NCBI GenBank assembly: GCA_963711835.1 | Contig: CAVQFQ010000025.1 | Span: forward strand, 49,442-113,441 | Reading direction: 5' to 3' | Length of the DNA stretch: 64,000 nt | Origin: an uncultured delta proteobacterium | GTDB taxonomy: Bacteria > Desulfobacterota > RBG-13-43-22 | Shown: positions 3,952 through 25,581 of the stretch, piece by piece | Layout: each line of letters opens with the position of its first letter | Numbering within the stretch: the first letter of the stretch is position 1 | Notes under the pieces: model-generated | Told to the model about the DNA's origin: nothing | Databases searched by the model: none | Seen by the model: only the letters and a program-made list of their open reading frames with translations | Position numbers and translations under genes: made by a program

Positions 3952-4488
3952 ATGACTGATGCCCGTGTCAAAGGGATGATCCAGATCTATACCGGAACAG
4001 GAAAAGGCAAGACTACGGCAGCCCTGGGTTTGGCCATGCGGGCCATCGGATATGGCCAGAAGGTGTTCATTATTCAATTTATGAAAGGGGAGGAGAAGAC
4101 AGGCGAGTTGCTGACTGCCGAAAAGCTATCCCCCTATCTGACCATCAAGCCCATGGGGAGGGAGGGTTTTATTGTTAAGGATCATATTGATCCCATCGAT
4201 CTCCATTGGGCCCAGGAAGGGATGGATCTGGCCCGGGAAGTGATCAGAAACGGCGCCCACGATATCCTGATTTTGGATGAAATCAACGTGGCCGTGTCTT
4301 TTGGATTGATCTCCGTCCAGGAGGTTTTGCAATTAATCAATAAAAAACCGCCCGGAATGGAATTGGTCCTAACCGGGAGATATGCCCCCGCCGAATTTTT
4401 GGAGAGGGCCGATTTGGTAACGGAAATGAAAAACATCAAGCATTATTACGAGAAGGGTGTTCCCCACCGGGAGAGTATCGAGCGTTAG
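3952..4488 (+). CDS. cobO: cob(I)alamin adenosyltransferase, CobO/BtuR type
   Basis: YTGTGKGKTTAALG P-loop, IQFMKG, ILDEI, ELVLTGR, ADLVTEM motifs. Confidence 0.9.
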   Translation: MTDARVKGMIQIYTGTGKGKTTAALGLAMRAIGYGQKVFIIQFMKGEEKTGELLTAEKLSPYLTIKPMGREGFIVKDHIDPIDLHWAQEGMDLAREVIRNGAHDILILDEINVAVSFGLISVQEVLQLINKKPPGMELVLTGRYAPAEFLERADLVTEMKNIKHYYEKGVPHRESIER

Positions 4489-4554
4489 GGAATTCAGGGC
4501 GGTCCTCCCGGACGGCCTTCCCCGGGTCCTTCCTGGGCTCCGGCATCTGCCATA

Positions 4555-4590
4555 GCGCCCATCCGGAAAGGATTGGTTCCGGATGGGCGC
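4555..4590. terminator. 14-bp perfect hairpin between convergent genes; likely bidirectional terminator
   Basis: GCGCCCATCCGGAA-8nt-TTCCGGATGGGCGC. Confidence 0.6.
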
Positions 4591-4614
4591 CCGAAGGGCC
4601 TGGATTTTTTCTGC

Positions 4615-5638
4615 TTATTTAAAATAATCGTCCCGGGCCTTTTTGAGCTGCTGAATATTCTCCAGGGGGGACCGGGGGGCGATCCCGCAGCCCGGGCAAA
4701 GAAAATCCGTGCCGTTTTCGAGGGCCTGGATGGATTCCTTATAGACCTCCTCCGGTGTTCCGCTGAAGAGAGTGGTGGCCGTGGCTACATTTCCAAAGAC
4801 TTTAACTCCGCTTTTGTGGGCGATCTCCACCGCCCGCTTTAGGTCCGCTTTTTCTTCGATGCTAATCCCGACCGCTCCCGTGGCGCACATCAATTCGATA
4901 ATCGGATCGGTATCGGCACAGACGTGTAAAACCACCGGCCCCTTGATGCTGCTGATGATTTCCTTTTCCAAAGGTAAAACAAATTTTTCATAAATTTTTG
5001 GGCTGAGGAGGGCCGGACCGGAAGTGGGTTCGGCAAAGACATAGAAATCGGCCCCCAGGTCAAAGGCGAAATTGGCGGCCGCTATGGCGGCCTGTTTGGT
5101 GACTTCAAAGGTCTTCAGCAGGGCATCCGGTTTTTTAAAGACCCATTTCATGAAGAGCTCGGTCCCCACCAGGTTGGCGGCGCAGGTAAAGGCCCCCTCC
5201 GATTCGCCGAAGATAACCATCGTCTCTCCGACTCTTTCTTCGAGCAGCCTGAAATTTTCTTTATAAACCGGAAAACGACCCCGGCTTAAAAAGTCGGCCG
5301 GGAATGCCAAATTTTCAACGCCTTCGGCATAGGGGTGTTCCTTGATAAAATACTGGCGATCGATCTCCGGCTTGCCCATGCCGCACCCCATAGCCTGGCT
5401 TAAAGGAATGATATCCCAGCCCATGGCCTTGACCCATTCAAAGTGCCCATAGACATGTCCCGCCATGGCCAACTCGGTCATGGCCTTCGGATCGTCATCC
5501 GCCAGGGGCCTCTCATAGCCGCATTTCTTCATAAAATCGACTACGCCATAGGTTGTTGTACGAGCCTACCGGGGTCTTGTCGACCTCTTTCCCCTGCAGT
5601 TGGTTTAAAAACCTTTTTTTTAAACTCAATTCTTCCAT
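4615..5638 (-). CDS. MtaA/CmuA-family (URO-D fold) methyltransferase; one apparent frameshift near 5562
   Basis: AGGAGG then ATG at 5638 gives MEELSLKKRFLNQLQGKEVDKTPVG; removing one base joins it to the 4615..5532 frame. Zn-ligand motifs LHVC and PGCG present. Confidence 0.8.
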
Positions 5639-5872
5639 CTTGGGCCTCCTTATATTTAAAAAAATGAATAATTTCCTTTTTAATTAGCTTAAACTAAAAT
5701 ACCACCGTTTTCAAATGATTTAATAACTCGACTATAAATTTCCTCTTTGCTATACTTCTTGTCCATCTCATTTGCATTGGGACCTCATCTGACGGATAAT
5801 TTTCTGGTGTCCGGGTCTCACGTTATCGACATCTGACCAGACCCTCCATTTATTTGAGAAAGGTCTAAAACT

Positions 5873-6394
5873 ATGTACTTAGACTTACGGAGTGCCCTTG
5901 TCCGTGATGGCAACCGGGTCACTTTTTTTGGACTTCCCATTGCCTTGCATTGCCACCACTACAATATTAATCTCCAAAAAACAGCGGAAGACATTTTGGG
6001 AGCGGAAGGGATTGAACTCCTCTTCCGGGCCGCTGAAGAGGCCAGCCATATGGGATTTAAAGCCATTTTAGGTTGGTATGATCGGATTAAGACCACAAAA
6101 TCGAAATTGGAATTGGCCGCTTCGGTTTATCAAAACTGCGGATTAGGCGTTATCCATTTCCAACAAATAGATCCCAAGAAAGGTCGGGTAGTCAGTACCT
6201 CCAGTTATCATGTCACCGGATGGTTGGCCAAGCATGGCATTCGATCAACTCCGGGTTGCCATTTTTCCCGAGGCTGGATCGCTGGGGTTCTGGAAGTCAT
6301 TTACGATCGACCCATTGGATATTTTGCTGTGAATGAGCGGGCCTGTAAGATGATGCGAAAAGAGAAATGTATTTTCGAGGTGAAGGAGCGTTAA
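5873..6394 (+). CDS. V4R-domain protein
   Basis: GLGVI...GCHFSRGWIAGVL...ERACKMM...CIFEV pattern typical of V4R. Confidence 0.7.
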   Translation: MYLDLRSALVRDGNRVTFFGLPIALHCHHYNINLQKTAEDILGAEGIELLFRAAEEASHMGFKAILGWYDRIKTTKSKLELAASVYQNCGLGVIHFQQIDPKKGRVVSTSSYHVTGWLAKHGIRSTPGCHFSRGWIAGVLEVIYDRPIGYFAVNERACKMMRKEKCIFEVKER

Positions 6395-6994
6395 GTGGCC
6401 ATTGATGGAAATAAAATAATTCAAGCTTTCATGGAAGGAAGTCGGATTCGGGATGAAAAGGGGATTATTCCTATCTTTGGGGTATATCTTTCCCTTTTTT
6501 TTGTCCAATATTATAATCGCCTTTCCTTTGATTTTGAAAGAAGGCTGGGTGAAGAGCGACAAGCGGAGGCAGAAGCTTATCTGATTCAAGCCGCTCAAGA
6601 ATGTGGCTATGCCACGTTTCATGGGCTACTCAATTCCTGGGAATGGGAAAACCTCGTTAAACCTATGATTGAGAAGGAAGAAGATAAGCTTCTTGGATTC
6701 ACCGCTGTGGCTTTGGCTGCCGGGTGGGGTGATTTGAGCATAAGAAGCCTCATTCCTGGGGAAAAGCTCGTTGTCTATGTAAATGAATCCTATGAGGCCA
6801 CAGGCTACCTCCAATCCCACGGTCGTGCCGGTTCAGGAAAATGTTTTATGCTTCGCGGGGTAACGGGAGCCTTTATGGATGTCCTCTACGGAGAAGACTA
6901 TCCGGACGGCTGCTTCACATTTTTAGCAGAAGAGCCTCTCTGCCGGGCCAAGGGAGATGTTCATTGTGAGTTCGAAGTCCATAAAAAATCCTAA
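6395..6994 (+). CDS. V4R-domain protein (second)
   Basis: GWGDL...SYEA...CFMLRG...EPLCRAKGDVHCEFEV; GTG start directly after the upstream stop. Confidence 0.72.
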   Translation: MAIDGNKIIQAFMEGSRIRDEKGIIPIFGVYLSLFFVQYYNRLSFDFERRLGEERQAEAEAYLIQAAQECGYATFHGLLNSWEWENLVKPMIEKEEDKLLGFTAVALAAGWGDLSIRSLIPGEKLVVYVNESYEATGYLQSHGRAGSGKCFMLRGVTGAFMDVLYGEDYPDGCFTFLAEEPLCRAKGDVHCEFEVHKKS

Positions 6995-9232
6995 AGGTTT
7001 TCAAAGGGAAGCCAACCTCGTTACCGGGCCAACTTGTTGGGAATACTTGGCCTGTTCCAAGGTGTTCTGTCCGGCATACGATAAAAGAAACCTGACCTGC
7101 TGGACCGTTTCTAAAACTCATTGCAGCGAAGAGGTCAGTGATGATTTCTTTAAAAAAATAGCGGCCTGTGTGGTTTGCCCATACTTCAAAAAAATAGGTG
7201 ACCAGGACCCAAGCGGATGGAATTATTTTCTGGCTGAGCAGATCCGCCAATATAATTTTAAGGCCTTGGGGCAGATCTATCAAAAGGAAGAAAGCTTTAT
7301 CGAAATCTTGGATCGCATCCCCGATGGGCTTTTTACCATCGATCAGGAATGGAGGATCACTTACTTTAATCCGGCGGCCGAAAAAATCACCGGTTTTTCA
7401 ACCCACGATGCGGTAGGGATGTATTGCAAGGACGTTTTAAAAAACACGATTTGTGAGACCGATTGTGCTCTGAAACGAGCTGTGGCTAACGGTACCTACA
7501 CCTATCATCAGGAGCAGATGATAACCAATATTGAAGGGAAAAAGATTCCGATTATCTGTTCAACCTCCGTCTTTTTAGATAACGAAAGGCGAATTACCGG
7601 GGGCATTGAGATATTCAAAGATATTACGGAACTGAGAAATCTCCAGGAGGAAATTTTAAGAAGGGAAAGAAAGTACCGGCGCATCTTTGAAAGCAGTAAT
7701 GACATGATTTATATTTCTAATCAGGGAGGCGCAATTCTGAATGTAAACCAGGCTGGGGTGGATATGCTCGGATACCGCAGCAAAGAGGAGTTGATGGGCA
7801 TCAGATCGGTAAGACAACTGTACCGAAGTACCCGAGATCGTGATCTTTTCATGGAACGGATCAATCGAGACGGGTACGTCAAAGATTTCGAAGTAGATTT
7901 GAAGCGGAAAGACAAATCGCTTGTCCATGTGCTCATTTCCAGCCGGCGCCATATAAATCCCGAAACAGAAGAAATCGAGTTCGAGGGAATTATTAAAGAT
8001 ATTACTCAGCGCAAAAAGGCAGAGCAAGCCCTCAAACAACGAAACCGGGATCTCTCCATTCTCAATACGATTGCTTTGGGTTTGAATATTACCATGGATT
8101 TGGATCAACTCTTGAGAATGACTCTAAAAAATATTATTAAGATGCTGCGAATACAAAGCGGGGCCCTGTTTCTGATTGACCGGGAAAAGAAAAAGGTCTT
8201 GCTCCAAGGGGGATATGGATTACCCGTCCAGGAACCCGGGCGCCTGGGCGAAGTTTTCTTTAAGGATATCCCCTTGATGAATTTCCTTTTAGACGAGGAT
8301 GGGAAGCTTCCACCAAAACCAAAGTTTCCTCCCTTTCAGGTAACTTACCCGGGAGAAGGTGGGAGGCCGGTTCCTTGGTTGTTTAGTTTTCTTATAACCT
8401 CACGGGGCAAATGCCTGGGATTCTTTGGCCTGGATCTTCCGCTCACAAAAATGCTAAGCCCCCATGAAGTGCATTTGCTCTCTTCTTTGGGCAATTTTTT
8501 AGGTGGAGCCATAGAAAATACTCAACTCGTTGAAACCATAAGGCGCCATCGACAAGAGCTGCGAAAACTAACTGAGAAGCTATTCCAGAGCCAGGAAGAG
8601 GAACGACGTCGTATCGCTCGGGAATTGCATGACGAAGCTGGCCAGGCCATGACGGGGATTAAATTGGGGTTGGATAGGCTGGAAGGGGCTGTGCCGGATG
8701 ATAACCAAATTCTTAAAGAAGAAATAGATCAAATCAGGAAGATGGTGACCCGCACTTCTTCGGAAATCAGACAGCTCTCCTATCGACTCCATCCTACGCT
8801 ACTGAGCGACCTTGGCCTGGAGCCGGCTCTGGACCTCTATTTAAAGAGCGTGGCCAACCAGTCGAAAATGAACATCGACTTTCGCATGGTGGGATTTGAC
8901 CACCGCCTGGACGCTGATATTGAAACCGTGCTCTATCGCTTCAGCCAAGAGGCCTTGACCAACACGCTAAAACATTCCGGAGCGGAAAACTTTCACCTCT
9001 CAATCATCAAGGGGTCACCAAAAATTATTTTTTTAGCTGAGGATGATGGGATTGGATTCGATGGCCGGATCATAGGAAACAACAAGAGGAGTTTGGGGTT
9101 ACTGGGTATGCGGGAGCGGGCTTCCCTTTTAGGAGGAACCTTCCAAATCCGAAGCCAACCCATAACCAGGGTACCCGAATTCGTATTGAAATTCCCTTAA
9201 ACGAGGTGCAGAGCCATGGCACAAACGATTAA
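6957..9232 (+). CDS. sensor histidine kinase (Cys-rich N-terminus, 2 PAS, GAF-like, HisKA_3/HATPase); frameshift near 9162; start uncertain
   Basis: IARELHDEAGQ H-box, QEALTN, EDDGIGF, GLLGMRERA; shifted frame restores QGTRIRIEIP as in the paralog at 21042. Confidence 0.85.
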
Positions 9233-9880
9233 AATTCTACTGGTTGACGACCATACCATTGTCAGGCAGGGACTGGCTCGCTTATTGGAGGATCAACCTG
9301 GTTTTAAAGTGGTGGGGGAAGCGGTGAATGGTAGGATTGCCGTTGAAAAGGCACAATCACTAAAACCGGATGTCATTATAATGGATATCGCCATGCCTTC
9401 TTTAAACGGCATTGAAGCCGCCAAAAGAATACGCAAGCTCCTCCCCAATACCAAGATACTGATTCTATCCATGTATTCTCAAGAAAATTATATTCACGAA
9501 CTTTTAGAAGCCGGGATATCGGGATATTTATTAAAAGACACCTCCAGCGGTCCTGATATTGTTCATGCTATTGAAGCGGCCATGAAGGGTGAAACCTCCC
9601 TAAGCCCGTCCGTGTCCAAATTGTTGGTGGATCGGTATCTCTCACTCCGAAAAAGTTCTCCCAAGGAAGAACGCTTCAATCAGCTATCCGATCGGGAAAG
9701 GGAGGTCTTACAGCTCATTGCCGAGGGCATTCGACCAAAAAGATTGCCGATCTACTCTGTATCAGCATTAGCACGATTAAAACCCATCGGGCCAAGGTTA
9801 TGGAAAAACTGGAATTGCGCACCACACCCCAATTAATATATTTTGCTATTCAGCTCGGTTTGGTTGAGCAGGAACTTTAG
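9216..9880 (+). CDS. NarL/LuxR-family response regulator; frameshift near 9728
   Basis: LVDDH...MDIAMP receiver domain; shifted frame gives STKKIADLLCISISTIKTHRAKVMEKL HTH ending at TAG 9878-9880. Confidence 0.85.
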
Positions 9881-9926
9881 CCCCCCTCTTTCCTCTCCAT
9901 CCTTCTCATCTCCAGAGATTATAAGG

Positions 9927-10008
9927 ATCATCCTTTTGTTGCCTAAGGATCATCTTTTTGTTGATTAAAAAACATCCTTTTGTTGATAAAAAACATCCCC
10001 AAGACGAT
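9927..10008 (+). promoter_or_regulatory. four tandem imperfect palindromic sites (A[T/A]CATC-N5-G[T/A][T/C]GAT consensus) at 22/22/21-bp spacing; candidate response-regulator operators
   Basis: Sites start at 9927, 9949, 9971 and 9992, upstream of the first methyl-transfer operon. Confidence 0.6.
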
Positions 10009-10133
10009 TTACCTTACGATCAAGTTTGTTGTATATTTGTTAAAATTCAAAAAGGTGAACTGGCTGATTTCTTTTTTGTTGGGTCGATACAAACCATACC
10101 GATTAACCCTAATCCGAGGTCAGACAGAGAATT

Positions 10134-10479
10134 ATGAGCTTCCTGCTCAGGCCACAGCACTCCCTAGGCAATCCTTTATACACAAAGTTGACCCTCCCGT
10201 GATGAGGCGCTGGAAGCGCTTCGAACGATTCTAAAAGAAGAAGAGATAAGCATACCTATTGATTTGATTTTAATCCGGGATGAAGCTGAAGCTACAGCCA
10301 AGCATTTCCAGGGTTCTCCGACCATCCAGATCAATGGATTGGATTTGGAGCCTGAGGCCCGAGAGCACCCAAAGATCGGTATGGGTTGACGATTTTATAT
10401 AGCGGAGGATGGACGATTCTCCAAGACCCCACCGGATTTCTTGGTCCGGGAGCAATTGAGGATATTGCTCAATGAATAA
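10134..10479 (+). CDS. putative thioredoxin-like selenoprotein with two Sec (DUF2703-like); needs a 1-nt frameshift near 10165-10170 to connect to ATG 10134
   Basis: Frame from 10171 reads ILYTQS-U-PSRDEALEAL...HFQGSPTIQINGLDLEP...GMG-U-RFY...; TGA at 10189 and 10387 sit where this family has Cys; hairpins follow both. Confidence 0.65.
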
Positions 10480-10517
10480 AAAGAACTAATTGATATTAAT
10501 TCGAAAGGAGTGACTTC

Positions 10518-11564
10518 ATGTCGGTCTTCAACTCAAGAGAAAGAGTCCTTCGACTTTTTCGTCGTGAACCGTTGGATACCATGCCCGTGTTTAGTGGGAT
10601 GGGTATGGTTACTATCCAGGCTATTCGTAAGATGGGGATCCCTTTTCCCCAGGTCCATAAATCGGCGGAATACATGGCCCGGGCGGCCTTGACTTCGGCT
10701 GAAATCTTCGGTTTTGATGCCGTGGTTATCCCTTATGATATGTGTACCGTTCCCGAAGCCCTGGGCCGTGGGGTGAGCCTTTATGAGGACTCTGAGGATA
10801 TCCTTTACCCTACCGTTCCAACCAAATGGGAAAGCCTGGAGGCAGTGGAAATTCCCCCGAATTATCTTTCTTTGGGTCGGATGCCTTTGGTGGACAAGGC
10901 ATTCGGTCTTTTAAAGGCCCAGTCGGATCAGGGGTTGGCCATCGGGGGATGGGTCTTGGGACCTTTTACCATGGCCGGACAACTCCTGGAACTGGATTTT
11001 CTCTTAAAAGGAATTAGAAAGGATAAAGAACGTATCGAAGCTTTTCTGGCCACCATGACTGATCTGGTGATTGAAGTAGCACGACATTATCAGGCCCTGG
11101 GACTTGATTATATCACGATCAGGGAAATGGGTTCAGGGACGGATCTCCTTTCCCCGCGTATGTGGACGACCATCATTGAACCCAACCTAAAAAGGCTTTT
11201 TGCCGCTATCCAATCACCCAAGATTCTCCATATCTGCGGTTCCACCGACCTGATTATCGAAATGATGAATAACTGCGGGGCCGATGCCCTTAGTGTGGAT
11301 CAGAAAAACAATTTAGCCTTATCTCGAAAAAAGTTGGGGAATGAAGTGCTGCTTTTAGGTAATTTCGATCCCTACCGTACTCTAGTGCATATGGACCCTT
11401 CTCAGGTGGAGTCGATTATTAAGAAGTGTATCGATGACGGTGCGGATGCGGTCTGGCCAGGATGTGACTTGTGGCCTGATGTGAATGAAGAAAATCTGAA
11501 AGTTGCTTTAAATACCATAAAGACTTATGGTCGCAAGCCGAGTCCCGCAGTCGGAAGGCTCTAA
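10518..11564 (+). CDS. MtaA/CmuA-family (URO-D fold) methyltransferase
   Basis: GPFTMA, ILHICG and WPGCDL motifs; RBS AAGGAG. Confidence 0.88.
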   Translation: MSVFNSRERVLRLFRREPLDTMPVFSGMGMVTIQAIRKMGIPFPQVHKSAEYMARAALTSAEIFGFDAVVIPYDMCTVPEALGRGVSLYEDSEDILYPTVPTKWESLEAVEIPPNYLSLGRMPLVDKAFGLLKAQSDQGLAIGGWVLGPFTMAGQLLELDFLLKGIRKDKERIEAFLATMTDLVIEVARHYQALGLDYITIREMGSGTDLLSPRMWTTIIEPNLKRLFAAIQSPKILHICGSTDLIIEMMNNCGADALSVDQKNNLALSRKKLGNEVLLLGNFDPYRTLVHMDPSQVESIIKKCIDDGADAVWPGCDLWPDVNEENLKVALNTIKTYGRKPSPAVGRL

Positions 11565-11589
11565 TAAATTTTATGAAAGGAGAAAAAAC

Positions 11590-12252
11590 ATGGCAAGCAA
11601 GGACGAATTGCACAAGGTCTTAAAGGAGGGAGTAATTAACTTTCAGGAAGAGGAAGTCAGGGAGGGGGCTCAAAAGATTCTGGCGGAAGGGTACGATCCT
11701 CTGGAAGCGGTCATGGATGGGCTCGCTGCCGGGATGCTGGTCGTGGGAGATCTTTATGAACGCAACGAGTATTTCGTTCCCGAGGTGCTCATGTGCGCCG
11801 ATGCCCTGTATGCCGGGTTGGACATTTTAAGACCCCATATCCCGAAAAAGGAAGGCAATATCAAGGGGCAGGTCGTTATCGGGACCGTTCAGGGGGATGT
11901 CCATGATATCGGTAAGAACCTAATTAAGATGATGTTTGATGTAAGCGGTTTCCAGGTTCATGATCTGGGTCGGGATGTCCCCGTGGAGAAGTTCGTGGCG
12001 GAACAGATGCGCACCGATTCCGAAATCGTCGCCCTGTCGGCGATGATGAGTACAACCATGCTGGGCATGAAAAAAGTAATCCAGATGATCAAGGAAAAAA
12101 ATCCCAACGTAGCCATTATGCTGGGTGGGGCACCGGTTTCTCAGGATGTAACCAAGTTGTTCGGTGCGGATGGCTATGCCGAATCGGCAGGTAATGCCGT
12201 TGAAGAGGCCATAAAAATGATCGGCCGTCTCCGGGAACTTAAGAAGGCGTAA
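11590..12252 (+). CDS. methyltransferase corrinoid protein (MtaC/MtbC-like)
   Basis: YFVPEVLMCA cap domain; GDVHDIGKN base-off/His-on motif; LGGAP; ATG after AAGGAG. Confidence 0.92.
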   Translation: MASKDELHKVLKEGVINFQEEEVREGAQKILAEGYDPLEAVMDGLAAGMLVVGDLYERNEYFVPEVLMCADALYAGLDILRPHIPKKEGNIKGQVVIGTVQGDVHDIGKNLIKMMFDVSGFQVHDLGRDVPVEKFVAEQMRTDSEIVALSAMMSTTMLGMKKVIQMIKEKNPNVAIMLGGAPVSQDVTKLFGADGYAESAGNAVEEAIKMIGRLRELKKA

Positions 12253-12393
12253 AAAGGGCCTCCTGTAATTATCTCCTTTTTCATTCAGCCGAAGGCCGAA
12301 ACCCAGTCGTTTGATATGGTTCGGGCTTCCGGCTTTCGCCGTAGTGACGGAATTTGTGAGTTGGGCAAGAGAATCCAATAAGGGAGGGAAAGT

Positions 12394-14451
12394 TTGAAGG
12401 ATAACAACGCGACTGTGATTTTCCAACCTTCTGGCCGCAGAGGGCTTGTTGAGAAAGGGATTTCTTTAATTGAGGCTTCCCGAAGGTTGGGTGTAGACAT
12501 CGAGGCCTTATGTGGGGAGAAAAAGAAGTGCGGCAAATGCAAGATTCGGATTGAAGAGGGTTTTTTTGAAAAGTTCGGTATTCAATCCAGCCTGTCCCAT
12601 ACGTCTCCCTGGTTGGAAGAGGAAGATAAGTATGTCAATGAACAGGAGAAGAACACCGGTTATCGCCTGGGATGTGTTGCCAATGTTGAGGGGGATCTTT
12701 TGGTCTTCGTACCGGAAGAATCCCGGGCCGGCAAACAGGTGGTGAGTAAAAAGGCCCGGGACATCTACATCGAGCATAACCCGGCCGTCAGGATCTATTA
12801 TGTCGAAGTGGACCCGCCTACTTTTGAGGACCCTACCGGCGATTTTGAACGAATCTGTAGGGAGCTGGAAAAACAATATGGGCTTGGCAAGTTAACGATC
12901 GACTTCTTCACCCTTCGGCAACTCCCCATGGCCCTTCGCGATGGAGACTGGAAAGTGACCGTGAGCATCTGGAATGACCTTGAGATCATCCGGGTGCGGC
13001 CCGGCAAGGCCGAGGCTGCTTATGGAATCGCCATTGATGTGGGGACTACCACCGTGGCCGGGTATTTTTGCAATCTCAACACCATGGAGGTTGTAGATAC
13101 CGTCACCCTGATGAATCCTCAGTGTAAATACGGGGAAGACGTCATGGCCCGAATTACCTGTCATATGACGAACCCGGACGGCCTCAAACGGATGAGCGAC
13201 GACATTATCGAGGGCCTGAACTGGATCATCGGTGAGGCCGTTAAGAACACCTTTCCTCCCAAGAAAAAGGTAAAAAGATCTGACGGGGAGGAAGGCCCTG
13301 AGGAATGGGTGGAGGTGCCGGAAGAAGGGAAGACCTATCTCCGGCTTACCTTGGATGATGTCGAGGATGTAACCATTGGCGGGAATACAGCCATGCATCA
13401 TATCCTGCTCCAGCTCAACCCGGAATTTGTGGGGATGGCCCCCTTTCCTCCGGTGATTCATCACAGCCTGGATGTCAAGACCCGGGATATCGGTCTCAAT
13501 ATTAACCGCGGATCCTATGTCTTCGTCCTGCCAAATGAGGCAGGTTTCGTGGGGGCCGATAATGTGGGGGTGCTTATCGCAGAGGAACCCTATAAGTCCG
13601 ATGAGACCCAGCTTATCATTGATATCGGGACAAACGGCGAGCTGGTTCTGGGCAACAGGCACAAGCTGATATCCTCCTCATGTGCTACGGGCCCGGCCCT
13701 GGAAGGGGCCCAGCTTCAATTCGGCATGCGGGCCGCCCCGGGGGCCATTGAACGGATCAAAATTGATCCGGAGACCCATGAAGTGGATTACAAGGTGATC
13801 GGGCGGGATGCCTGGCGGCAGTACTCCGAACCCAAGGAGATGAAGACCAAGGGAATCTGCGGATCGGGGATCCTGGATGTCTTGGCCGAACTTTATCGTT
13901 CCGGGGTTATTATGAAGAGCGGTGTGTTCAGTAAGAATCAAAAATCGAACCGCTCCCGTATTAATCCGGAAACCAAGCAACCTGAATTTGTGATTGCCTG
14001 GGCAAATGAGACTAGTATCGGGCGGGATGTGGTAATTTCCCAAAAGGATATCAGACAAATCCAACTGGCCAAAGGAGCCCTATATTGCGGATGTAAATTG
14101 ATGATGCGGCGTATGGGTATTGATAAGGTGGAGATAGTAAAGATTGCCGGGGCTTTTGGTACCCACGTAGACCGAGAAAAGGCCTTGATCATGGGTCTAT
14201 TCCCGGATTGTGCGATCGACAAGATTGTTTCCATAGGAAACGCCGCCGGGGATGGAGCTAGGGCGGCCCTGTTGAACCGGGAAAAACGGATTGAGGCCAA
14301 CTGGGTCTCCCGCAATGTGGAATATATTGAATTGACGGTGGAAAAGGATTTCCAGGTTCAATTTATGGAGGCCATGCAGATACCCCATATGAAGGATGCC
14401 TTTCTCCATTTGGAAGGATTGGTAAGAGCTGAAATTCTTCACCAGAAATAA
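12394..14451 (+). CDS. RACE/RamA-type ATP-dependent corrinoid reductive activator (2Fe-2S + ASKHA/DUF4445)
   Basis: CGEKKKCGKC...RLGC ferredoxin; DVGTTT, DIGTNGE, SCATGPALEG, GICGSG, GNAAGDGA. Confidence 0.9.
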   Translation: MKDNNATVIFQPSGRRGLVEKGISLIEASRRLGVDIEALCGEKKKCGKCKIRIEEGFFEKFGIQSSLSHTSPWLEEEDKYVNEQEKNTGYRLGCVANVEGDLLVFVPEESRAGKQVVSKKARDIYIEHNPAVRIYYVEVDPPTFEDPTGDFERICRELEKQYGLGKLTIDFFTLRQLPMALRDGDWKVTVSIWNDLEIIRVRPGKAEAAYGIAIDVGTTTVAGYFCNLNTMEVVDTVTLMNPQCKYGEDVMARITCHMTNPDGLKRMSDDIIEGLNWIIGEAVKNTFPPKKKVKRSDGEEGPEEWVEVPEEGKTYLRLTLDDVEDVTIGGNTAMHHILLQLNPEFVGMAPFPPVIHHSLDVKTRDIGLNINRGSYVFVLPNEAGFVGADNVGVLIAEEPYKSDETQLIIDIGTNGELVLGNRHKLISSSCATGPALEGAQLQFGMRAAPGAIERIKIDPETHEVDYKVIGRDAWRQYSEPKEMKTKGICGSGILDVLAELYRSGVIMKSGVFSKNQKSNRSRINPETKQPEFVIAWANETSIGRDVVISQKDIRQIQLAKGALYCGCKLMMRRMGIDKVEIVKIAGAFGTHVDREKALIMGLFPDCAIDKIVSIGNAAGDGARAALLNREKRIEANWVSRNVEYIELTVEKDFQVQFMEAMQIPHMKDAFLHLEGLVRAEILHQK

Positions 14452-14462
14452 GCAGGGTTTAA

Positions 14463-14807
14463 ATGCAGAAAGACCAACCAGAGAAGAGAGGCGTCCAAGT
14501 ATCCGTGGAACCGGGTATTTGCGGCTTTTCTTGTACGATCAAGGCCAGGATAAAGGAACGCTGGTCAGTGCAACTGGAAATTAATTCCGGCTGTGAGCAG
14601 ATCCAGAACCTTTCTAACCTCTTGAAGGATATTACGGTCAAGGATTTGTTTTTGCCTATAACCCGGAATCCTCTTTATCTTTCGGCTGAACAAGCGGGTT
14701 GTCACCCTTCCTGCGCGGTTCCGGTAGCGGCGGTTAAAGCGACCGAAGTGGCCATGGGGACAGCCCTGCCGCAAGAGGTCAAGATTGAATTCGAGGTCAT
14801 GAAATAA
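14463..14807 (+). CDS. small Cys-containing protein, DUF6951-like
   Basis: GICGF...SGC...CHPSCAVP pattern; paralog at 30478. Confidence 0.6.
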   Translation: MQKDQPEKRGVQVSVEPGICGFSCTIKARIKERWSVQLEINSGCEQIQNLSNLLKDITVKDLFLPITRNPLYLSAEQAGCHPSCAVPVAAVKATEVAMGTALPQEVKIEFEVMK

Positions 14808-14834
14808 TTTAAATTTATTGCGGAAAGGTAAAAA

Positions 14835-16106
14835 ATGATTTCAAAACCTATCCATCTGGTAGTCGTTCATAGTGGAGATTCAAATTGAAAGCCCTGCGAG
14901 CGGGCGCTGGATGCGGCTCAAAAGATAAAGGATCGTTTTGGCAATGCCATCCGATTCGAAGCCTTTACCATTGCTTCGGAAGAAGGAAAGGCCTTTAAAG
15001 TCACCACCTCAACCAATGTCTTTGTAAATGGGGAACTGCTTCCCCTAAACACCTGGCTGGAGGAAGAGAAATTCGTTCAGTATATTCAGGAAGCTATCGG
15101 AGGAAAGGAAAAAGCAGCCGGAAAGATTGAGGTACACGAAAAGTTCGACGTGGTGATCATTGGCGGCGGCCCGGCCGGATTGACGGCAGGTATCTATTGT
15201 GCTCGCGCCAGGCTGAAAACCATCTTATTGGAAGGGGCCAGCCTTGGTGGTCAGGTGGCTATGACGGACAAGATTGAAAATTACCCGGGGTACACCGGCG
15301 AAAGCGGCCCTGAATTAATTAATACTATGGAAAGGCAGGCCAGGAAGTTCGGTCTTGAGATACAAACGTTCAAAACGGTGACCCAGATCATGGGAGACGG
15401 GTTGCTCAAAGAAGTCTATGCCGGAAATGATCTTTATCCCTGCGAGGCGCTTATCTTAGCCACCGGCCTTAAGACATCGGAATTAAATCTTGAAAAAGAA
15501 GATTATTTCAGGGGCAAAGGCCTGTCGTATTGTGCCGTTTGTGATGCTAATTTTTTTGTCGGAAAGAAAGTTGTGGTCGTCGGGGGCGGGGACACCGCGG
15601 CTGAAGATGCCTTGTACCTGTCCAAATTTGCCTCACAGGTTTTTATTGTCCACAGAAGGGACGAGTTGCGGGCGGCAAAAATATTACAAGAAGCCGTTTC
15701 CTGCAATGAAAAGATCACCGTCTTGTGGAGCCATGTCGTCCAGAGTCTGGTTGGGGACACGGTGTTGGAGGGGCTGGTTTTGAGGGATCTGAAGACCGGA
15801 AACGAAACCAGGCTGGATGTGGAGGGTTTTTTCGTTGCCATTGGATCTCGTCCCTACACCGGCTTCATTAAAAACCTGGTGGCTATGGATGAACAAGGGT
15901 TTGTCCTGGTAAATTCCAGGATGGAGACTTCCTATCCAGGTATCTTTGCGGCTGGTGATATCAGAGACACCCCTTTGAGACAGGTATCCACAGCCGTTGG
16001 CGATGGGGCCATTGCGGCCATATCGGCTGAAAAATTTGTCAGAGACGTGAAGGATAAAGGCGAGTGTAAACTACCCGAATCAAAAACGGCCTCCTTTCCT
16101 TTTTGA
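14835..16106 (+). CDS. putative selenoprotein: UxxC thioredoxin-like domain fused to thioredoxin reductase (423 aa)
   Basis: ATG 14835 is in frame with the TrxR ORF; only interruption is TGA 14886 in SN-U-KPC; TrxR motifs GGGPAG, YCAVCD, GGGDTA, FAAGD. Confidence 0.8.
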
Positions 16107-16109
16107 TTC

Positions 16110-17057
16110 ATGGTTCTGAAAAACAGAATGCCTCCAGTAACTATGTATATCATAGGCGGTTTCCTTGGTTCCGGGAAGACCACTTTTTTGCAAACCCTGT
16201 TGGATTGGCAGGGCGATCTTTCCTCCACCGCTGTTATGGTTAACGAATTTGGGGAAATCTCGGTTGACGGGATGCTCCTGGATTCGAAAGGTAGCCAGCT
16301 TGTGGAATTGGCCAGCGGATGCATCTGCTGCTCCATGAGAGGGGAATTTATCAAGAGTTTGGAGAATGTTTTAGATAATTTTACGATTACCAGAATTTTT
16401 GTTGAGACAACGGGCGTGGCCGATACCTTGGAACTTATTTCGGTTCTGAAAGAATCCAAGGTCTCGGAACGTGTTGCCCTGAAAAAGATTATTTGCGTCC
16501 TGGATGCCGACCTCTGGCCGGGAAGAGATAATTTTGGGCTGGTTTTTTTAAATCAAATAAAGGCTGCCGATCTGATCCTTCTCAATAAAGTCGATCTCGT
16601 CGAAAAAGGTCAGGTGGTTCCCTTTATGGAAGAGATACAAAAGATAAATCCCGACAGTCTGGTCATCCCTACTTATTACTGCAGGATAGACCTGGATCTG
16701 CTTTTGGATGGGGAAGAACGAGATCGCCCCCTGCGCCTCGACACAGTGAATGGGCTGCCAGACTTTAATTCTAATCTGGAGAAGCCCATCGGTTTTGCGA
16801 CTTTTCTTTTTCAGGAGGAGGGCTCGCTCTCCGAGGCTTGTTTCAAAGAGTTCCTTGATAAAATCCCTCCCCACATTTTTCGTATTAAGGGGCAAGTAAG
16901 GTTTTCGGGAAAGGCTTTTCTGCTGAACCATGTCGGAGGCAGGAGCCAATGGATCGAATCTGAAAACAAAAGTGGCTCCCAATTGGTCTTTATCGGCTGG
17001 AATATGGATACGGAGGCCCTTAAGGCCGATCTGGCAGCTTGCCTGGAGGGCAAGTGA
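16110..17057 (+). CDS. CobW/COG0523-family GTPase metallochaperone
   Basis: GFLGSGKTT, NEFG, GCICC, ETTG, NKVD, RIKG motifs. Confidence 0.88.
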   Translation: MVLKNRMPPVTMYIIGGFLGSGKTTFLQTLLDWQGDLSSTAVMVNEFGEISVDGMLLDSKGSQLVELASGCICCSMRGEFIKSLENVLDNFTITRIFVETTGVADTLELISVLKESKVSERVALKKIICVLDADLWPGRDNFGLVFLNQIKAADLILLNKVDLVEKGQVVPFMEEIQKINPDSLVIPTYYCRIDLDLLLDGEERDRPLRLDTVNGLPDFNSNLEKPIGFATFLFQEEGSLSEACFKEFLDKIPPHIFRIKGQVRFSGKAFLLNHVGGRSQWIESENKSGSQLVFIGWNMDTEALKADLAACLEGK

Positions 17058-17111
17058 TCATGAAGGAAGGACTTTCCAAAAGTGTTTGGATATCAGAAAG
17101 GGGATTGGGCC

Positions 17112-17549
17112 GTGGATAAGGAGTCTATTCAAAAAGGTATGCTGGCCTTAGCGCAGGAGGGATTTCGCTGCAGCCAAATTATGCTGGCCTTGGGACTCAA
17201 ACGCCAGGGCAAGGAAAACCCGGATCTGATTCGAGCCATGGGCGGTTTGATCGTCGGGGTCGGCTACAGCGGCAAGATTTGCGGTGCCCTCACCGGGGGT
17301 ACTTGCCTGATCACTTTGTATGCCGGTAGGGGGCGGGCTGATGAGAAAGAGCACCCTAAGCTGTGGCCCATGGTCCAGGAATTCGTTGAATGGTTTGAGT
17401 CGGAGATAGGGGAAAACAAGGGAATCATTGACTGTGATGGGATCCTGGAAAGAGCCGGTGTAGCTAAACCTTCCAGCGAGACCTGCGGACCGATCGTACT
17501 TAAAGCCTACATAAAGGCCGTTTCCATTTTAGAGGCAAACGGACTATAG
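17112..17549 (+). CDS. C-GCAxxG-C-C family putative redox protein
   Basis: CSQ...ICGALTGG...C...C pattern; probable GTG start at 17112. Confidence 0.75.
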   Translation: MDKESIQKGMLALAQEGFRCSQIMLALGLKRQGKENPDLIRAMGGLIVGVGYSGKICGALTGGTCLITLYAGRGRADEKEHPKLWPMVQEFVEWFESEIGENKGIIDCDGILERAGVAKPSSETCGPIVLKAYIKAVSILEANGL

Positions 17550-17599
17550 CAAAAAAAATACCATAAATTAAACTCGAAAAAGAAAGGGGGCGAGAGAAG

Positions 17600-17818
17600 G
17601 TGGCGAACGAAATAAAGACAAGCAAGTTGCAGATTATTGCCAATACGGGGAACTGAATACCGATTATTAAAATAGCCCTGGAAGGGACTGAAGGGGTTGA
17701 AAAGGCCGAGGTCGATATTCAATATGCCACCGTATGGCATGATCCGGCTAAGGTTTCTGCTGATCAGTTGGCCGCCATAGTAACCAAAGCAGGAAAAGAT
17801 TGTTTTCCTGTAAGTTAA
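17600..17818 (+). CDS. putative HMA/CopZ-fold selenoprotein with a single Sec (72 aa)
   Basis: GTG after purine-rich RBS; MANEIKTSKLQIIANTGN-U-IPIIKIALEGTEGVEKAEVDIQYATVWHDPAKVSADQLAAIVTKAG; TGA 17654; fills the operon gap. Confidence 0.75.
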
Positions 17819-17842
17819 GACAAGCCTGAAAGGAGGGCAAAC

Positions 17843-18892
17843 ATGAGCATTCCAAAAGACAAAATGACCCCCAAGGAAAGAATGGGCTCCCTACTTCAAG
17901 GAAAACCCATTGACAGAGTCCCTTGCATTCCGGTTATCCTTAACGGTTGTGCCAGAGTGGCAGGCTATACCATCAAGGAAATGACCCTGGACGGAGAGAA
18001 GTTCGGTAAGGCTAATGTAGCCACTTATAAAAAATACGGCCATGATATGATTTGTCTGCTTGATGCCACGGGTACCACAGCCGAGGCAGCGGGAACCAAA
18101 CTGAATTATCCGGATGAGATGCCTGCTTTTGTGGAAGACCCCTTGATCAAGTCCAGGGACGATTTAAAAAAGCTGCGTCCACTGGACCCCACCAAGGATG
18201 GCCGCCTCAACAATTACCTGATAGCCACGGAGTATTGCGTTTCAGAAGTAGGCAACGAGGTGTTTGTCGGGACCCTCTTTGCCGGCGCCTTTACCACCGC
18301 AGCCTGTTTGAGAGGCACTGAGGCCCTTTTGAAAGATATCTATAAAGATAAAGAAATGGTCCATCATCTGGTGAGATGGGCAACCGACGTCACCATACCT
18401 TTTTTAGATGAAGTCATCAAAAGAGGGGGCGTTCCGTTTTTGTGTGAGCCGGTAGGTACGGGAAGCATCCTGAATCCCAAAGCCTTTGCTGAATTTGTAG
18501 AACCGTATCAGAAAGAATTAAACGATTTTGTAAAATCTAAAGGTCTCCCCGCGCTAAATCATATCTGTGGGAATTCCCTGCCGATCATGGAACCTTGGCT
18601 CCGGACCGGCCCGACGGTCATTAGTGTGGATCGGGTGGATATCGGGGAGATCTCAAAAAAGTTTGGAGATAAGGTGGGATTGTGTGGGAATGTCAATCCC
18701 GGGAAGACGCTCTTTATGGGTTCCCCGGAAGCGGTCGATGCCGAGGTAAAGGATATTATGGAAAAAGCTGGGAAAAATCCCTGCGGTTTTGTGCTGGCTT
18801 CGGGGTGCGAAGTGCCCAGTGAAACGCCTCCGGAGAATATCTTTGCCATGATGGATGCCGCGAGAAAATATGGGCAACATCCATTACCTTAG
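17843..18892 (+). CDS. URO-D/MtaA-CmuA family methyltransferase
   Basis: MTPKER...DRVP, GAFTTA, NHICGN, SGCEV motifs. Confidence 0.88.
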   Translation: MSIPKDKMTPKERMGSLLQGKPIDRVPCIPVILNGCARVAGYTIKEMTLDGEKFGKANVATYKKYGHDMICLLDATGTTAEAAGTKLNYPDEMPAFVEDPLIKSRDDLKKLRPLDPTKDGRLNNYLIATEYCVSEVGNEVFVGTLFAGAFTTAACLRGTEALLKDIYKDKEMVHHLVRWATDVTIPFLDEVIKRGGVPFLCEPVGTGSILNPKAFAEFVEPYQKELNDFVKSKGLPALNHICGNSLPIMEPWLRTGPTVISVDRVDIGEISKKFGDKVGLCGNVNPGKTLFMGSPEAVDAEVKDIMEKAGKNPCGFVLASGCEVPSETPPENIFAMMDAARKYGQHPLP

Positions 18893-18908
18893 ATAGGAGG
18901 TGTAACTT

Positions 18909-19139
18909 ATGGAAGACATAAAAGAGATTATCATTAAGATCCCCAGCTTAACTTGAACTACTTGAGAGGTGATGGTTAACGCGGCTCTGGATGAGTCCGT
19001 CGGCGTTCTTGAGTATGAAACAAGTATTGCAACACTGCAAACACGGGTGAAATTTAATTCAAATCAAACCAACGAAGAGACCTTGATGGAAAATATCAAG
19101 AAGAAAACAGGTTATAGTAACCTATACGTACTCTCATAA
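18909..19139 (+). CDS. putative HMA/CopZ-fold selenoprotein with UxxU motif (76 aa)
   Basis: GGAGG RBS, ATG 18909; MEDIKEIIIKIPSLT-U-TT-U-EVMVNAALDESVGVLEY...KKTGY; TGA at 18954 and 18963 replace both Cys of the MxCxxC motif. Confidence 0.82.
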
Positions 19140-19147
19140 GGTTCGTG

Positions 19148-19201
19148 TCCTTTCTGGGGGGCGGAGATTTCTATCCTATCCCCAGAAAGGATAAATTTTT
19201 C
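19148..19201 (+). terminator. probable intrinsic terminator closing the selenoprotein operon
   Basis: TCCTTTCTGGGG...CCCCAGAAAGGA 12-bp stem followed by a T-rich tract. Confidence 0.6.
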
Positions 19202-19474
19202 AATCAGGGTCGTTCAATTCCCTTTCGTCATTCCACTATTAAATCCCTTCAGGAAGAATTTTTTTTCATATCGGCATTAATATTTCAACCAAGTTATAAG
19301 AATGAGCTAGAAGAAAAAATATATTATCGGAAATATCTATTTAAAAATAAATTTGCATCCAAATTTTCTATTTGATCTATCGCCTTAACCATAATAATAG
19401 AACAACATTTAGATTCCTAGTTCAGCACAATCTGTATGCGCAATTAAGTTGAATCAAAATAGAGAGGCTGAGAA

Positions 19475-20083
19475 ATGAAAGAGAAAAGGATCATTGATTG
19501 TCGAGGCCTTGCCTGCCCTCAACCGGTAATTCAAACTAAGGAGGCCCTTGAAAAGTTCTCAGCCGGCTGTCTTCAAGTTATAGCCGATAATGATTCCTCC
19601 TGCATCAATGTCAGGCGTTACGCCGAGAGCCAGGGGCATCTGGTTCAAGTTGAGGAAAAGGAAGGAAATTATTTTTTGGAGATTGAGAAAAGAAATGCTT
19701 CAATTGCCTCGGATAGGTTAACCGAAGTTTCCCAGGAAGCTCAGGAAAAGAGCCTTGTGATTTATATTGCTTCCGAAGGGGTTGGAAGGGGAGATGATGA
19801 ATTGGGCCGTATTCTAATGGCCGCCTACCTGGATACCCTCTCCCAATTTGCCCGAGAGATCTCTCACCTGATTTTTATGAATAGTGGGGTCAAGTTGGCA
19901 GTGGAGGGCTCTTCAGTTCTTGAGCAAATAGAAAATCTGAAGAGCATGGGTGTCGAGGTGCTGAGCTGCGGTACCTGCTTGAATTTTTTCGGGGTTATTG
20001 AAAAACTTCGAGTCGGCTCTGTTTCCAATATGATGATTATACAGGAGATCCTTTCTAAGGCGAAAAAGGTCTTGAGCCCATAA
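19475..20083 (+). CDS. yedF: selenium metabolism protein YedF (TusA-like + DsrE-like)
   Basis: IDCRGLACPQPV N-terminus; GRGDDELGRILM; MNSGVKL; SCGTCL; VGSVSNM. Confidence 0.85.
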   Translation: MKEKRIIDCRGLACPQPVIQTKEALEKFSAGCLQVIADNDSSCINVRRYAESQGHLVQVEEKEGNYFLEIEKRNASIASDRLTEVSQEAQEKSLVIYIASEGVGRGDDELGRILMAAYLDTLSQFAREISHLIFMNSGVKLAVEGSSVLEQIENLKSMGVEVLSCGTCLNFFGVIEKLRVGSVSNMMIIQEILSKAKKVLSP

Positions 20084-20206
20084 AAAATAAACCGGTGAAT
20101 TTTCACCTACTGAGGCGGATATCTTATTTTTCAAATATAAAATAATACCTCCCGATCGATCATGTCGGTTAAACGGATTGTTTGTACCTGTGATGAAAGG
20201 AGCTGC

Positions 20207-20746
20207 GTGGAAAACAAAAGGCATTCCCGTAATAAGATAAAGCCAGCCTCACTGATTTCACTGGTCCAAAGAGCCCTCGAATTGGGGGCGAATGAAGCCA
20301 AGCCTTTGAGGACGGATCAGGTGGTTTTTGATCCTCGTGCCCATCTCAAGTGCCGCTTTGGCTGCGGGCGCTGGGGCAAGTATTGGACCTGCCCACCCCA
20401 TCTTGCTCTCCCGCAGTCCACTTTTGATAAAGCCTTTGCTCGATACCAGACGGCTTTGGTTATCAAAACCAGCGATCCCAAATCCGGGCAAGAGGTGGCC
20501 CTATCTTTGGAAAAAGAGGCCATGTTACAATATGGCTGCTCCTTTGCCCTGGCCCTGGCCCTCTGTGTTCAGTGTGAAGAGTGCGCTTATCCGGAGCCCT
20601 GCCGTTACCCTCACCTGGCCAGGCCGGCCTTGGATGCCTTAGGCGTAGACGTGGGCAAGACCCTGGAGCCTCTGGGCTTTAAGGTGGAATTCGACAAGGA
20701 AGGCCTGCTCCTTCCCGTCTGGTACACCATGGTCTTGCTGGATTAA
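20207..20746 (+). CDS. DUF2284-like Cys-rich putative metal-binding protein
   Basis: KCRFGC...WTCPP and CVQCEEC...PCRYP...ARP..DALGVDV; GTG after AGGAG. Confidence 0.7.
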   Translation: MENKRHSRNKIKPASLISLVQRALELGANEAKPLRTDQVVFDPRAHLKCRFGCGRWGKYWTCPPHLALPQSTFDKAFARYQTALVIKTSDPKSGQEVALSLEKEAMLQYGCSFALALALCVQCEECAYPEPCRYPHLARPALDALGVDVGKTLEPLGFKVEFDKEGLLLPVWYTMVLLD

Positions 20747-21041
20747 GATTTAAAGCCTTGTGGTCTGAGGGGGTCGGCTTTCGGGAATGCCGTTTCAGAG
20801 AGGATGTGTATCATAAAAAATGGTTATATTCTTTCTTGGAATGCCTCCTCCCACCTGATTTTGAAGAGTTGGTAACGTCAACCCAATACCCTTTCTAATT
20901 GTACTGCCCTAATCTTTGCAGCGCATAGGGGCCATCCCACCCTTTTAAAGATGGGAAATCCCGTCAATCAAAGGAACATACGGGAATCGGCCGGATAAAA
21001 AATGTCTGGTTCCGGCGGCCGGATTTTGTTATAGTTGGCCC

Positions 21042-23855: not shown

Positions 23856-24803
23856 GTGTTCCAGATAGAAACAGCACAAAAAGTGTGCCAGGTCGGAGGG
23901 GTGAAGTTCGGGGGGCAACCTGGAGAATATCCTACCGTGGTCTGTTCCTCCATCTTCCAAAAAGGAGACAAATTATTTCTGGGAAAAAGGCAGGAGGGCT
24001 TTGATGAAAAGCGGGCCGCGGAACTCCTTAAGACCCAGGACAAGCTCTGGCAGGAGACCGGGGTGCCGGGCATGGCCGATATCGTGGCCAATACCGGCAG
24101 TGAATTTAAGACTTATATTGATTTTGTGACCTCAGTGAGTAATATGCCCTTTTGTATCGATGCCTGGACTATGAAACCCAAACTGGAGGGGGCGGCCTAT
24201 TGTGCCGAAAAAGGCCTGCTGGACCGGATGTTTTATAACAGCCTGACGGTCTGGGAAAAGGATTTGGAGACCGAAATCAAGGAAATTGCCCAAATCGGCG
24301 TAAAACACGTGCTCCTGGTGGCCTTTGATATGGCGGATCAATTACCCAGTGGGAGAATCGCCGGCACCCAAAAACTACTTGATGCCATTGATAAGGTGGG
24401 GGCATCCTTTGAAAGCCTATTTGTTGACACTTCGGTCATGAACGGACCGGCCACGGCTTTTTGTGGCCTGGCCAACCGTCTGATTAAGGAAAAATGGGGC
24501 TTCCCCACCGGAAGCGCTCCGAGTAACGGATCGTATATGTGGAAAAAGGCCCGGGAAATGTGGGGGTTCACGGGCTGGTCGGCGGTCGATGCCGGTTTGG
24601 AGTCCCTGGCCTCCTTTCTATACCATGACATCATCTTTTCCGGTCCCATGGCCGGTGCCCCGAGAATCTTTCCGGCCGTGGCCATGGCCGATGCCTTTTT
24701 AGCCACGGCGGTTTTTGCCGAGAGCAAGCGGTTGCCCCAGGATCCGAACCATCCGCTATTTAAGCTCTTTCCGGAATTTGTGGAGCAACTCAAAAAGATT
24801 TAA
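23856..24803 (+). CDS. MtrH-like pterin:corrinoid methyltransferase
   Basis: FGGQPGEYPTV..SIF signature, FCID, YNSL, VDTSV, PTGSAPSN. Confidence 0.85.
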   Translation: MFQIETAQKVCQVGGVKFGGQPGEYPTVVCSSIFQKGDKLFLGKRQEGFDEKRAAELLKTQDKLWQETGVPGMADIVANTGSEFKTYIDFVTSVSNMPFCIDAWTMKPKLEGAAYCAEKGLLDRMFYNSLTVWEKDLETEIKEIAQIGVKHVLLVAFDMADQLPSGRIAGTQKLLDAIDKVGASFESLFVDTSVMNGPATAFCGLANRLIKEKWGFPTGSAPSNGSYMWKKAREMWGFTGWSAVDAGLESLASFLYHDIIFSGPMAGAPRIFPAVAMADAFLATAVFAESKRLPQDPNHPLFKLFPEFVEQLKKI

Positions 24804-24900
24804 TAAGCTAAGGTTCCAATTCTAAACCGGCAGCGGGTGGCCGGCCGAGGCCTTTCGCCGAGGGAATCCCCGGAAATAAAAAGAAAAAGGAGGGACAGGC

Positions 24901-25581
24901 ATGGCTTCAGAAGAAAGAACAAAAGAACTAATGAAAGCCCTTCAGGAGGCGGTAGTCAACTACGATGAGGACAAGGTCAAGGAATTGTCTCAGGCCGTTA
25001 TCGATGAAGGGGCGGATCCCTTTACGGCTACCATGGACGGTTTGGCTGAAGGGATGATTCAGGTTGGGGATCTTTATAATAAAAAGGAATACTTCGTCCC
25101 CGAGCTCCTGATGTGCGCCGATGCCCTGTATGCAGGACTGGACCTTCTGAAGCCCGCCATTGAGGCTTCCGGGAGAAAAAGCGAATCCAAGGGTTCTATC
25201 GTGCTCGGGGTGGTCGAAGGCGATGTCCACGACATCGGTAAAAACCTGATCAAGATGATGTTTGAGGTGGCCGGCTGGACCGTTTATGACTTGGGTAAAG
25301 ACGTGCCTTTGGACCGGTTCTTGGAGGAACAGTTGAGGACGGACTCGGATATCGTCGGGCTTTCGGCCTTGATGACTACCAGCATGATCAGTATGCCCGA
25401 GATCGTCAAGAAGCTGAAGGAGAAAAATCCCAAGGTTCGGGTTATGTTGGGCGGCGCCCCCATTACCCCGGAAGTGGTGGAAAAGTACGGCGCCGACGGC
25501 TACGCCCGGGATGCCGGGACGGCCGTAGACGAGGCCATTAAATTGATTAAGATGCTCCGGGAAGAAGAAAAGGCAAAGTAA
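24901..25581 (+). CDS. methyltransferase corrinoid protein
   Basis: YFVPELLMCA, GDVHDIGKN, SALMTT, LGGAP. Confidence 0.92.
   Translation: MASEERTKELMKALQEAVVNYDEDKVKELSQAVIDEGADPFTATMDGLAEGMIQVGDLYNKKEYFVPELLMCADALYAGLDLLKPAIEASGRKSESKGSIVLGVVEGDVHDIGKNLIKMMFEVAGWTVYDLGKDVPLDRFLEEQLRTDSDIVGLSALMTTSMISMPEIVKKLKEKNPKVRVMLGGAPITPEVVEKYGADGYARDAGTAVDEAIKLIKMLREEEKAK

Follow-up and report, generated by a model that had tools for sequence, protein, structure and literature searches.

The name hypothetical protein DF was given in the deep-Sep study (PMC12013277) to the product of a single genome, for which the available text reports cysteine homologs and no homologs with TGA. In the table of a 2026 review (PMC13188914), DF is given one selenocysteine (Sec) and no motif. 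For the genes downstream of our locus, close described systems are type 1 mlp clusters, which, in the parts of Kountz and Balskus (PMC10418091) that cover them, combine several UroD methyltransferases, a corrinoid protein, an activase and selenium genes, and the Haft-Tolstoy selenoprotein neighbourhoods with TsoX (NF045809) and ArsM/AhpD (NF041537).

The DF gene considered here lies in the window, that is, the whole stretch of 64,000 nucleotides that was analysed. Its product has the same Cys/Sec columns and GSP motif as the DF of deep-Sep, and two TGA codons where the table of the review lists one Sec. The operon that follows (Table 1) likewise contains several UroD methyltransferases, a corrinoid protein and an activase of the Ram/RACE type. 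Unlike the type 1 mlp clusters as described in that source, it includes DF, HMA-type Sec proteins and a fusion of TsoX with thioredoxin reductase (TrxR), and an MtrH-like gene lies nearby. TsoX thus occurs in the operon itself, and ArsM/AhpD in the Sec cassette of a related genome, G005.

An earlier note, made from the letters of the window, had proposed a frame with two TGAs, and this frame reads as written from 10168 to 10479, with TGA at 10189 and 10387 and a TAA stop at 10477. The note had also pointed to an in-frame TAG at 10165 and to the need for a one-nucleotide indel to reach ATG 10134, which is off by one base; both points were confirmed. Between 10168 and the first TGA, there is no in-frame ATG, GTG or TTG. 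Overall, DF is a real and likely intact gene of a known family.

Table 1. Features of the DF locus and the downstream operon (positions in the window).
Feature	Position	Strand	Remarks
DF-family (NF049942) thioredoxin-fold gene	10134..10479	+	likely Sec at residues 19 and 85 (numbering of the unbroken relative L083, 114 codons)
Probable assembly break	10164..10167	+	extra base at 10167 and differing base at 10164, giving in-frame TAG 10165
TGA 1	10189..10191	+	first-Cys position of thioredoxin active site, start of helix 1
SECIS-like hairpin after TGA 1	10204..10222	+	7-bp core, extendable to 9; G opens loop
TGA 2	10387..10389	+	invariant Cys of G-C-R motif, insertion after strand 4
SECIS-like hairpin after TGA 2	10404..10422	+	7 bp; G opens loop
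UroD/MtaA-CmuA-like methyltransferase (MT1)	10518..11564	+	38 nt after DF stop
Corrinoid protein	11527..12252	+	
RACo corrinoid activase	12394..14451	+	
DUF6951 protein	14463..14807	+	
TsoX domain (UxxC, TGA 14886) fused in frame to thioredoxin reductase	14835..16106	+	NF045809 98 bits, cut-off 52
CobW GTPase and C-GCAxxG-C-C (DVU_1555) protein	16110..17549	+	
HMA-like small protein, one in-frame TGA (17654)	17600..17818	+	weak family scores
Second UroD-type methyltransferase (MT2)	17843..18892	+	
HMA-domain protein, UxxU (TGA 18954, 18963)	18909..19139	+	both TGAs kept in G005
Selenium-metabolism protein YedF and DUF2284 protein	19475..20746	+	

Membership of the gene at 10134-10479 in the DF (seleno)protein family NF049942 is confirmed at the level of the profile: against a cut-off of 70, the model gives 93.3 bits when Sec is replaced by Cys (model positions 3-95 of 96) and 77.7 bits when the stops are read through, and the protein shows the GSP motif of the family together with both invariant Cys/Sec columns. 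The earlier note had named DUF2703 (PF10865) for a search with Sec read as Cys. That search gave only 17.8 bits (E 0.0036), below the gathering cut-off of 23.6, and membership was rejected in favour of NF049942; DUF2703 is a distant thioredoxin-like relative only.

The thioredoxin-like character claimed for the protein is borne out by the predicted fold and its structural matches. The AlphaFold model has a pLDDT of 92, and among known structures it is thioredoxins that align to it best (top Z 7.9, rmsd 2.9, 79 residues aligned), a Z below 8 being not distinctive; Foldseek with the model gave no match at E<=0.001. A profile match to 1fo5 was found (E 2.7e-5). Small archaeal-type thioredoxins, MJ0307, MTH807 and MTH895 (PDB 1fo5, 1nho, 1ilo), match the first 60 positions of DF and share its fold. 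In contrast to them, DF has no CxxC: its first site reads U-P-S-R with no second Cys, which leaves the first-Cys position without a partner, and the second Cys/Sec follows only after 66 residues, within an insertion of ∼20 residues after strand 4. DF thus adds a protein whose two Sec would sit 66 residues apart rather than in a UxxU motif. The ESM Atlas, queried with a Cys homolog, returned only "thioredoxin domain" and unnamed clusters, and a word-based protein search with the window protein gave no matches, while the HMMER representative search yielded 2,495 clusters at E<=1e-10.

To see how the Sec forms are distributed, we compared three sets of genomes. Among the 21 genomes of the window's family, 11 carry 13 DF matches at E<=1e-8, comprising nine loci with two TGAs (in 7 genomes), one partial locus with one TGA, and three without TGA; each of the 8 other two-TGA loci has an in-frame Met start. 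Among 401 genomes of the phylum, 40 match DF, Cys/Sec forms are common, and two TGAs were seen only in the window's family. In the family of G408 (187 genomes), there are 26 matches in 24 genomes, 22 of them listed with one TGA and four with two. Sec forms of DF are widespread in Desulfobacterota and not unique.

In print, the founder sequence carries U at site 1 and breaks off immediately ahead of site 2. One locus, L271, with TGA at both columns, translates letter for letter to this printed sequence and then runs through the second TGA, behind which there are a hairpin and 26 more residues. Since L271 equals the printed sequence plus the read-through of the second TGA, the founder itself is likely a two-Sec protein. 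Judging from this locus, the published count of one Sec reflects a truncated sequence, and the record of the family needs to be corrected: the founder was printed truncated at its second UGA. We found no published two-Sec DF and no published mer or ars link of DF in the literature searched, outside which most subscription papers lie, and no DF entry in one supplement of BSepDB; as far as the searches reach, the two-Sec state is unpublished.

L271 belongs with L272-L274 (in G466, G556, G519 and G550 for L271-L274) to a second two-Sec clade, separate from that of the window. The two groups do not form one clade (p-AU 0.0075 in a quick tree of 37 rows), and the double-Sec state would have arisen at least twice or been lost repeatedly. 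At a further locus, L277, site 1 is TGA, and the frame appears to shift ahead of site 2. In a quick tree of 84 rows, including 40 sampled Cys/Cys rows, the copy of the window and that of L083 form a long branch (0.72) nested in the acr3-linked two-Sec group, the 12 rows making one branch with support of 93.

We surveyed the neighbours of DF in the best 80 of 508 metagenome loci, the best 80 of 156 genome loci and the loci from the genome searches. The 228 matches were typed by codon, 19 were set aside because the residue at a site was unclear, and collapsing of duplicates left 167 loci. A mer or ars gene was found within 3 kb at 88 of the 122 Cys/Cys loci (78 by a stricter count of MerA/B/T/C, Acr3 and ArsM/C/P only), at 11 of 32 Cys/Sec loci and at 10 of 12 Sec/Sec loci, the other two being the window and L083, compared with a baseline of 0.65% of this genome; in these counts, seeds were drawn from the DF loci themselves, kin are not independent, and many contigs are short. 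The commonest neighbour is MerR (63 loci), and acr3 adjoins all ten other two-Sec loci of the window's clade. Outside this clade, most Sec-bearing loci are without a mer or ars neighbour (21 of 32 Cys/Sec). The same holds in the family of G408 for 20 of 26 loci, including all four with two Sec, whereas six show merR or merB and none of these is two-Sec (1.5-kb flanks only).

DF also occurs in fusions. Among 34 scanned of the 36 homologs of at least 150 residues, a fusion with MerT was seen in 13, with HMA alone in one more, and with parts of MerB in two (P0026, P0041); in addition, three genomes of the window's family (L010, L011, L012) encode a Cys/Cys DF joined to an ArsC/LMW-phosphatase-like domain. 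The statement in the earlier note that some members occur with MerB stands, both for fusions and for neighbours, with the amendment that MerT, MerR and Acr3 are commoner partners. Two candidate neighbours were discarded: a seed for ArsA proved to be the N-terminus of Acr3, and the single "MerA" near the two-Sec locus L038 is probably lipoamide dehydrogenase. At L067, a DF-like domain that lacks both cysteines is joined to a BFD-like [2Fe-2S] domain, and MerT/MerP-like genes lie upstream. In the window, no merA, merB, merT, merR, acr3, arsC or arsM was found in 4000-22000. The genome (89% complete) has matches to arsM, arsC, arsP and arsR, and, by the queries used, no acr3, no merR, merT, merB or merA, and no hgcA over the cut-off.

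On balance, the observations tilt towards DF being a two-Sec thioredoxin-fold protein, its break likely an assembly error, that binds a soft metal or metalloid between two selenols and passes it on. Residue 19 would be the thioredoxin-type nucleophile beside the GSP loop, and residue 85, on the inserted loop, would fold back to meet it. The Sec pair may then cycle between diselenol, metal-bound and diselenide states, with the TsoX-TrxR fusion of the same operon as the candidate reductant. Sec at both sites would raise the affinity for soft ions. As a soluble carrier, DF could bind As(III), Hg(II) or their methyl forms and hand the ion to a transporter or enzyme; here, it would capture or buffer a soft ion that demethylation frees or is poisoned by. 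MerP, CopZ and ArsD are accessory metal carriers of mer and ars systems. Like them, DF is small and soluble with two soft ligands, and its gene is found beside or fused to MerT, MerB, Acr3 or ArsC; unlike them, it has the thioredoxin and not the HMA fold, and its ligands are far apart in sequence. A large family would in this way gain a testable accessory role in mer and ars systems.

The gap between DF and MT1 contains no terminator-like site, and a promoter scan gave two sites versus 1.4 expected, which is the chance level. In an RNA run (X18), contigs fall on MT1, the corrinoid gene and RACo, but DF has neither a contig nor any depth. DF is likely co-transcribed with this selenium-rich corrinoid methyltransferase operon. 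Reading through TGA in the operon yielded three further Sec candidates, namely, the TsoX-TrxR fusion, the HMA-like protein with one TGA, and the HMA protein with UxxU, whose hairpins are weaker (3-5 bp). The TGA of TsoX is kept in 4 of 20 relatives; the fusion recurs in G005:C195, and stand-alone TsoX with TGA is found in G019, G020 and G003. The two small HMA genes flank MT2, in the same order in G005, where the gene at 17600-17818 has an 81%-identical homolog at the same place; both resemble NF041115 and score 36-37 against its cut-off of 95. G005 keeps TsoX-TrxR, HMA, MT2 and HMA together with an arsenite methyltransferase/AhpD selenoprotein (L250:10063-11222, G005:C195; NF041537 537 bits, cut-off 510). 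At that locus, the ArsM/AhpD selenoprotein and a HUIPC-like thioredoxin directly follow the UxxU HMA gene. With four Sec candidates round corrinoid methyltransferases, the operon is a candidate for the handling of methylated Se, As or Hg in anoxic sediment, the link being weak.

A second methyl-transfer block is present at 23856-30825, with an MtrH/MtgA-like gene, a corrinoid protein, RACo, a UroD methyltransferase and DUF6951. Its RACo has 1150 aa and an inserted 4Fe-4S/flavin oxidoreductase, which is a separate gene in relatives.

These surroundings also suit the main competing explanation, which we consider rather unlikely, that two-Sec DF is a plain redox enzyme, a diselenide oxidoreductase, in an operon for salvage of methyl-selenide or methyl-sulfide like type 1 mlp. 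DF would then reduce diselenides or keep the Zn-thiols of the methyltransferases reduced. It agrees with the thioredoxin fold, with an operon of two UroD methyltransferases, corrinoid protein, RACo, YedF, TrxR and three more Sec candidates, and with the MT2 homologs of G043, which stand in the order corrinoid-MT-MT-activase. Moreover, in the sections cited above, Kountz and Balskus (PMC10418091) tie type 1 mlp clusters to methyl-Se/S and report that ClMlp2 carries out selenide methyl transfer. Against it, DF has no CxxC, the neighbours and fusion partners of the family are metal transporters and regulators, and an MtrH/MtgA-like gene is present at 23856, while the first clusters in that source are without an H4folate methylase.

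Alternatively, DF may be intact and metal-binding, as preferred here, and stand before the methyltransferase because a rearrangement happened to bring it there, the two being functionally unrelated. Among the 167 loci, DF adjoins this operon only in the window and L083, and the operon core of V4R, kinase, regulator and methyltransferase recurs without DF in four relatives (G001, G005, G007, G013). The claim that DF heads a methyl-transfer operon is hence right for this locus and wrong as a family trait, being specific to this species group. Judging from the loci compared, the gene has left an acr3 cluster for the head of the operon in this lineage, and the long branch that followed would fit such an accident. 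Yet the window copy, though ∼45% diverged from the acr3-linked ones, has retained the two TGAs and the two hairpins, hairpin 1 is stronger in it than in relatives, the 38-nt gap shows no terminator, and the operon includes two HMA-type Sec candidates, so that we regard a purely accidental placement as improbable.

Carrying the metal-transfer reading further, the operon of this Desulfobacterota lineage could serve to demethylate methyl-arsenic, methyl-mercury or methyl-selenium by an anaerobic route that depends on a corrinoid. UroD methyltransferases would pass the methyl group to the corrinoid and then to tetrahydrofolate; As or Hg set free in this way would be trapped on the selenols of DF and the Sec-HMA proteins, which TsoX-TrxR would recycle. 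According to the available text of two reports (bioRxiv 10.64898/2026.08.27.747368; PMC10579292), the anaerobic demethylation of arsenic in methanogens has been linked to corrinoid methyltransferases, and because of this precedent we keep the idea, as a long shot. If true, it would put names to candidate genes for a demethylation that proceeds anaerobically and needs neither MerB nor ArsI.

Between the upstream regulator and the DF start (9922-9998), there are three to four tandem 22-bp repeats, with one more copy in L083. These are possibly binding sites of the regulator.

For the break near the DF start, the earlier note had left a choice between an assembly error and a recent pseudogene, and the comparisons favour the former. 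We used twenty public runs that share part of 8500-12500; each has at most 40% of the words of this region, and therefore none is clearly the source. The base at 10167 is absent in all five DNA runs that cover the site (X1-X5), four of which (X1-X4) also differ at 10164. It is also absent from the metagenome contig L083, which is 96% identical to window 7799-10806 (3 kb) and whose DF gene is a single open frame of 114 codons that begins at ATG and reaches its stop with both TGAs inside it. The extra base is thus likely an assembly error.

The indel has company upstream. The C-terminal part of the kinase gene has extra bases at 9158 and 9162, and the HTH regulator lacks a base near 9723-9727; these changes are seen in the window only and not in the other runs or L083. 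By comparison, frame changes affect 3 of 39 genes tested genome-wide, one being this same regulator and one probably a break in the relative itself. The four one-base indels in 9158-10167 (1 kb) are thus far denser than the genome background, which fits local decay too: the frameshift could be real in the strain, with the kinase, regulator and DF genes decayed together as a recent pseudogene block. That three adjacent genes are struck is in keeping with such decay, as is the fact that the comparison runs come from other strains (contigs ∼97-99% alike over the gene) and not from the source sample. On the other side, two one-base insertions four bases apart look like consensus errors, as does a substitution plus an insertion inside four bases; all relatives covering the sites are free of the indels, and the DF gene shows no further decay. 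Consequently, joint decay is a poor bet, and we infer that a patch of poor consensus is very probably the cause rather than three fresh pseudogenes. At 20181, at the start of the DUF2284 gene, a base is absent in one run (X3), possibly a further assembly indel.

Both in-frame UGA codons are likely read as Sec. They align to invariant family Cys columns in an alignment of 21 sequences, and, as the earlier note had observed, each is followed by a hairpin, with the stem beginning 12-14 nt 3' of the TGA. By the same rule, stems of at least 9 bp are found behind 0.4% and stems of at least 7 bp behind 2.5% of 18,935 sampled genomic TGAs, and the TGA of the genome's own selD has a stem of 7. Folding z-scores computed over the full folded segments at the two sites are modest (-2.6 and -1.25), and two-sided covariation was found in neither hairpin. 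The idea that the TGAs are plain stops and DF is no selenoprotein is hardly tenable, as TGA occurs only at the two Cys columns in nine loci from seven genomes of the 21-genome family and at column 2 in dozens more loci, hairpins and Sec machinery are present, and NCBIfam already calls the family (seleno)proteins. Hairpin 1 is strong in the window copy and has only 3-4 bp in relatives of the same family. In hairpin 2, all six pairs are kept in 11 of 11 sequences, with one G-U/A-U change. The genome itself carries selA, selB and selD (with TGA), all over the cut-offs, and tRNA-Sec (selC).
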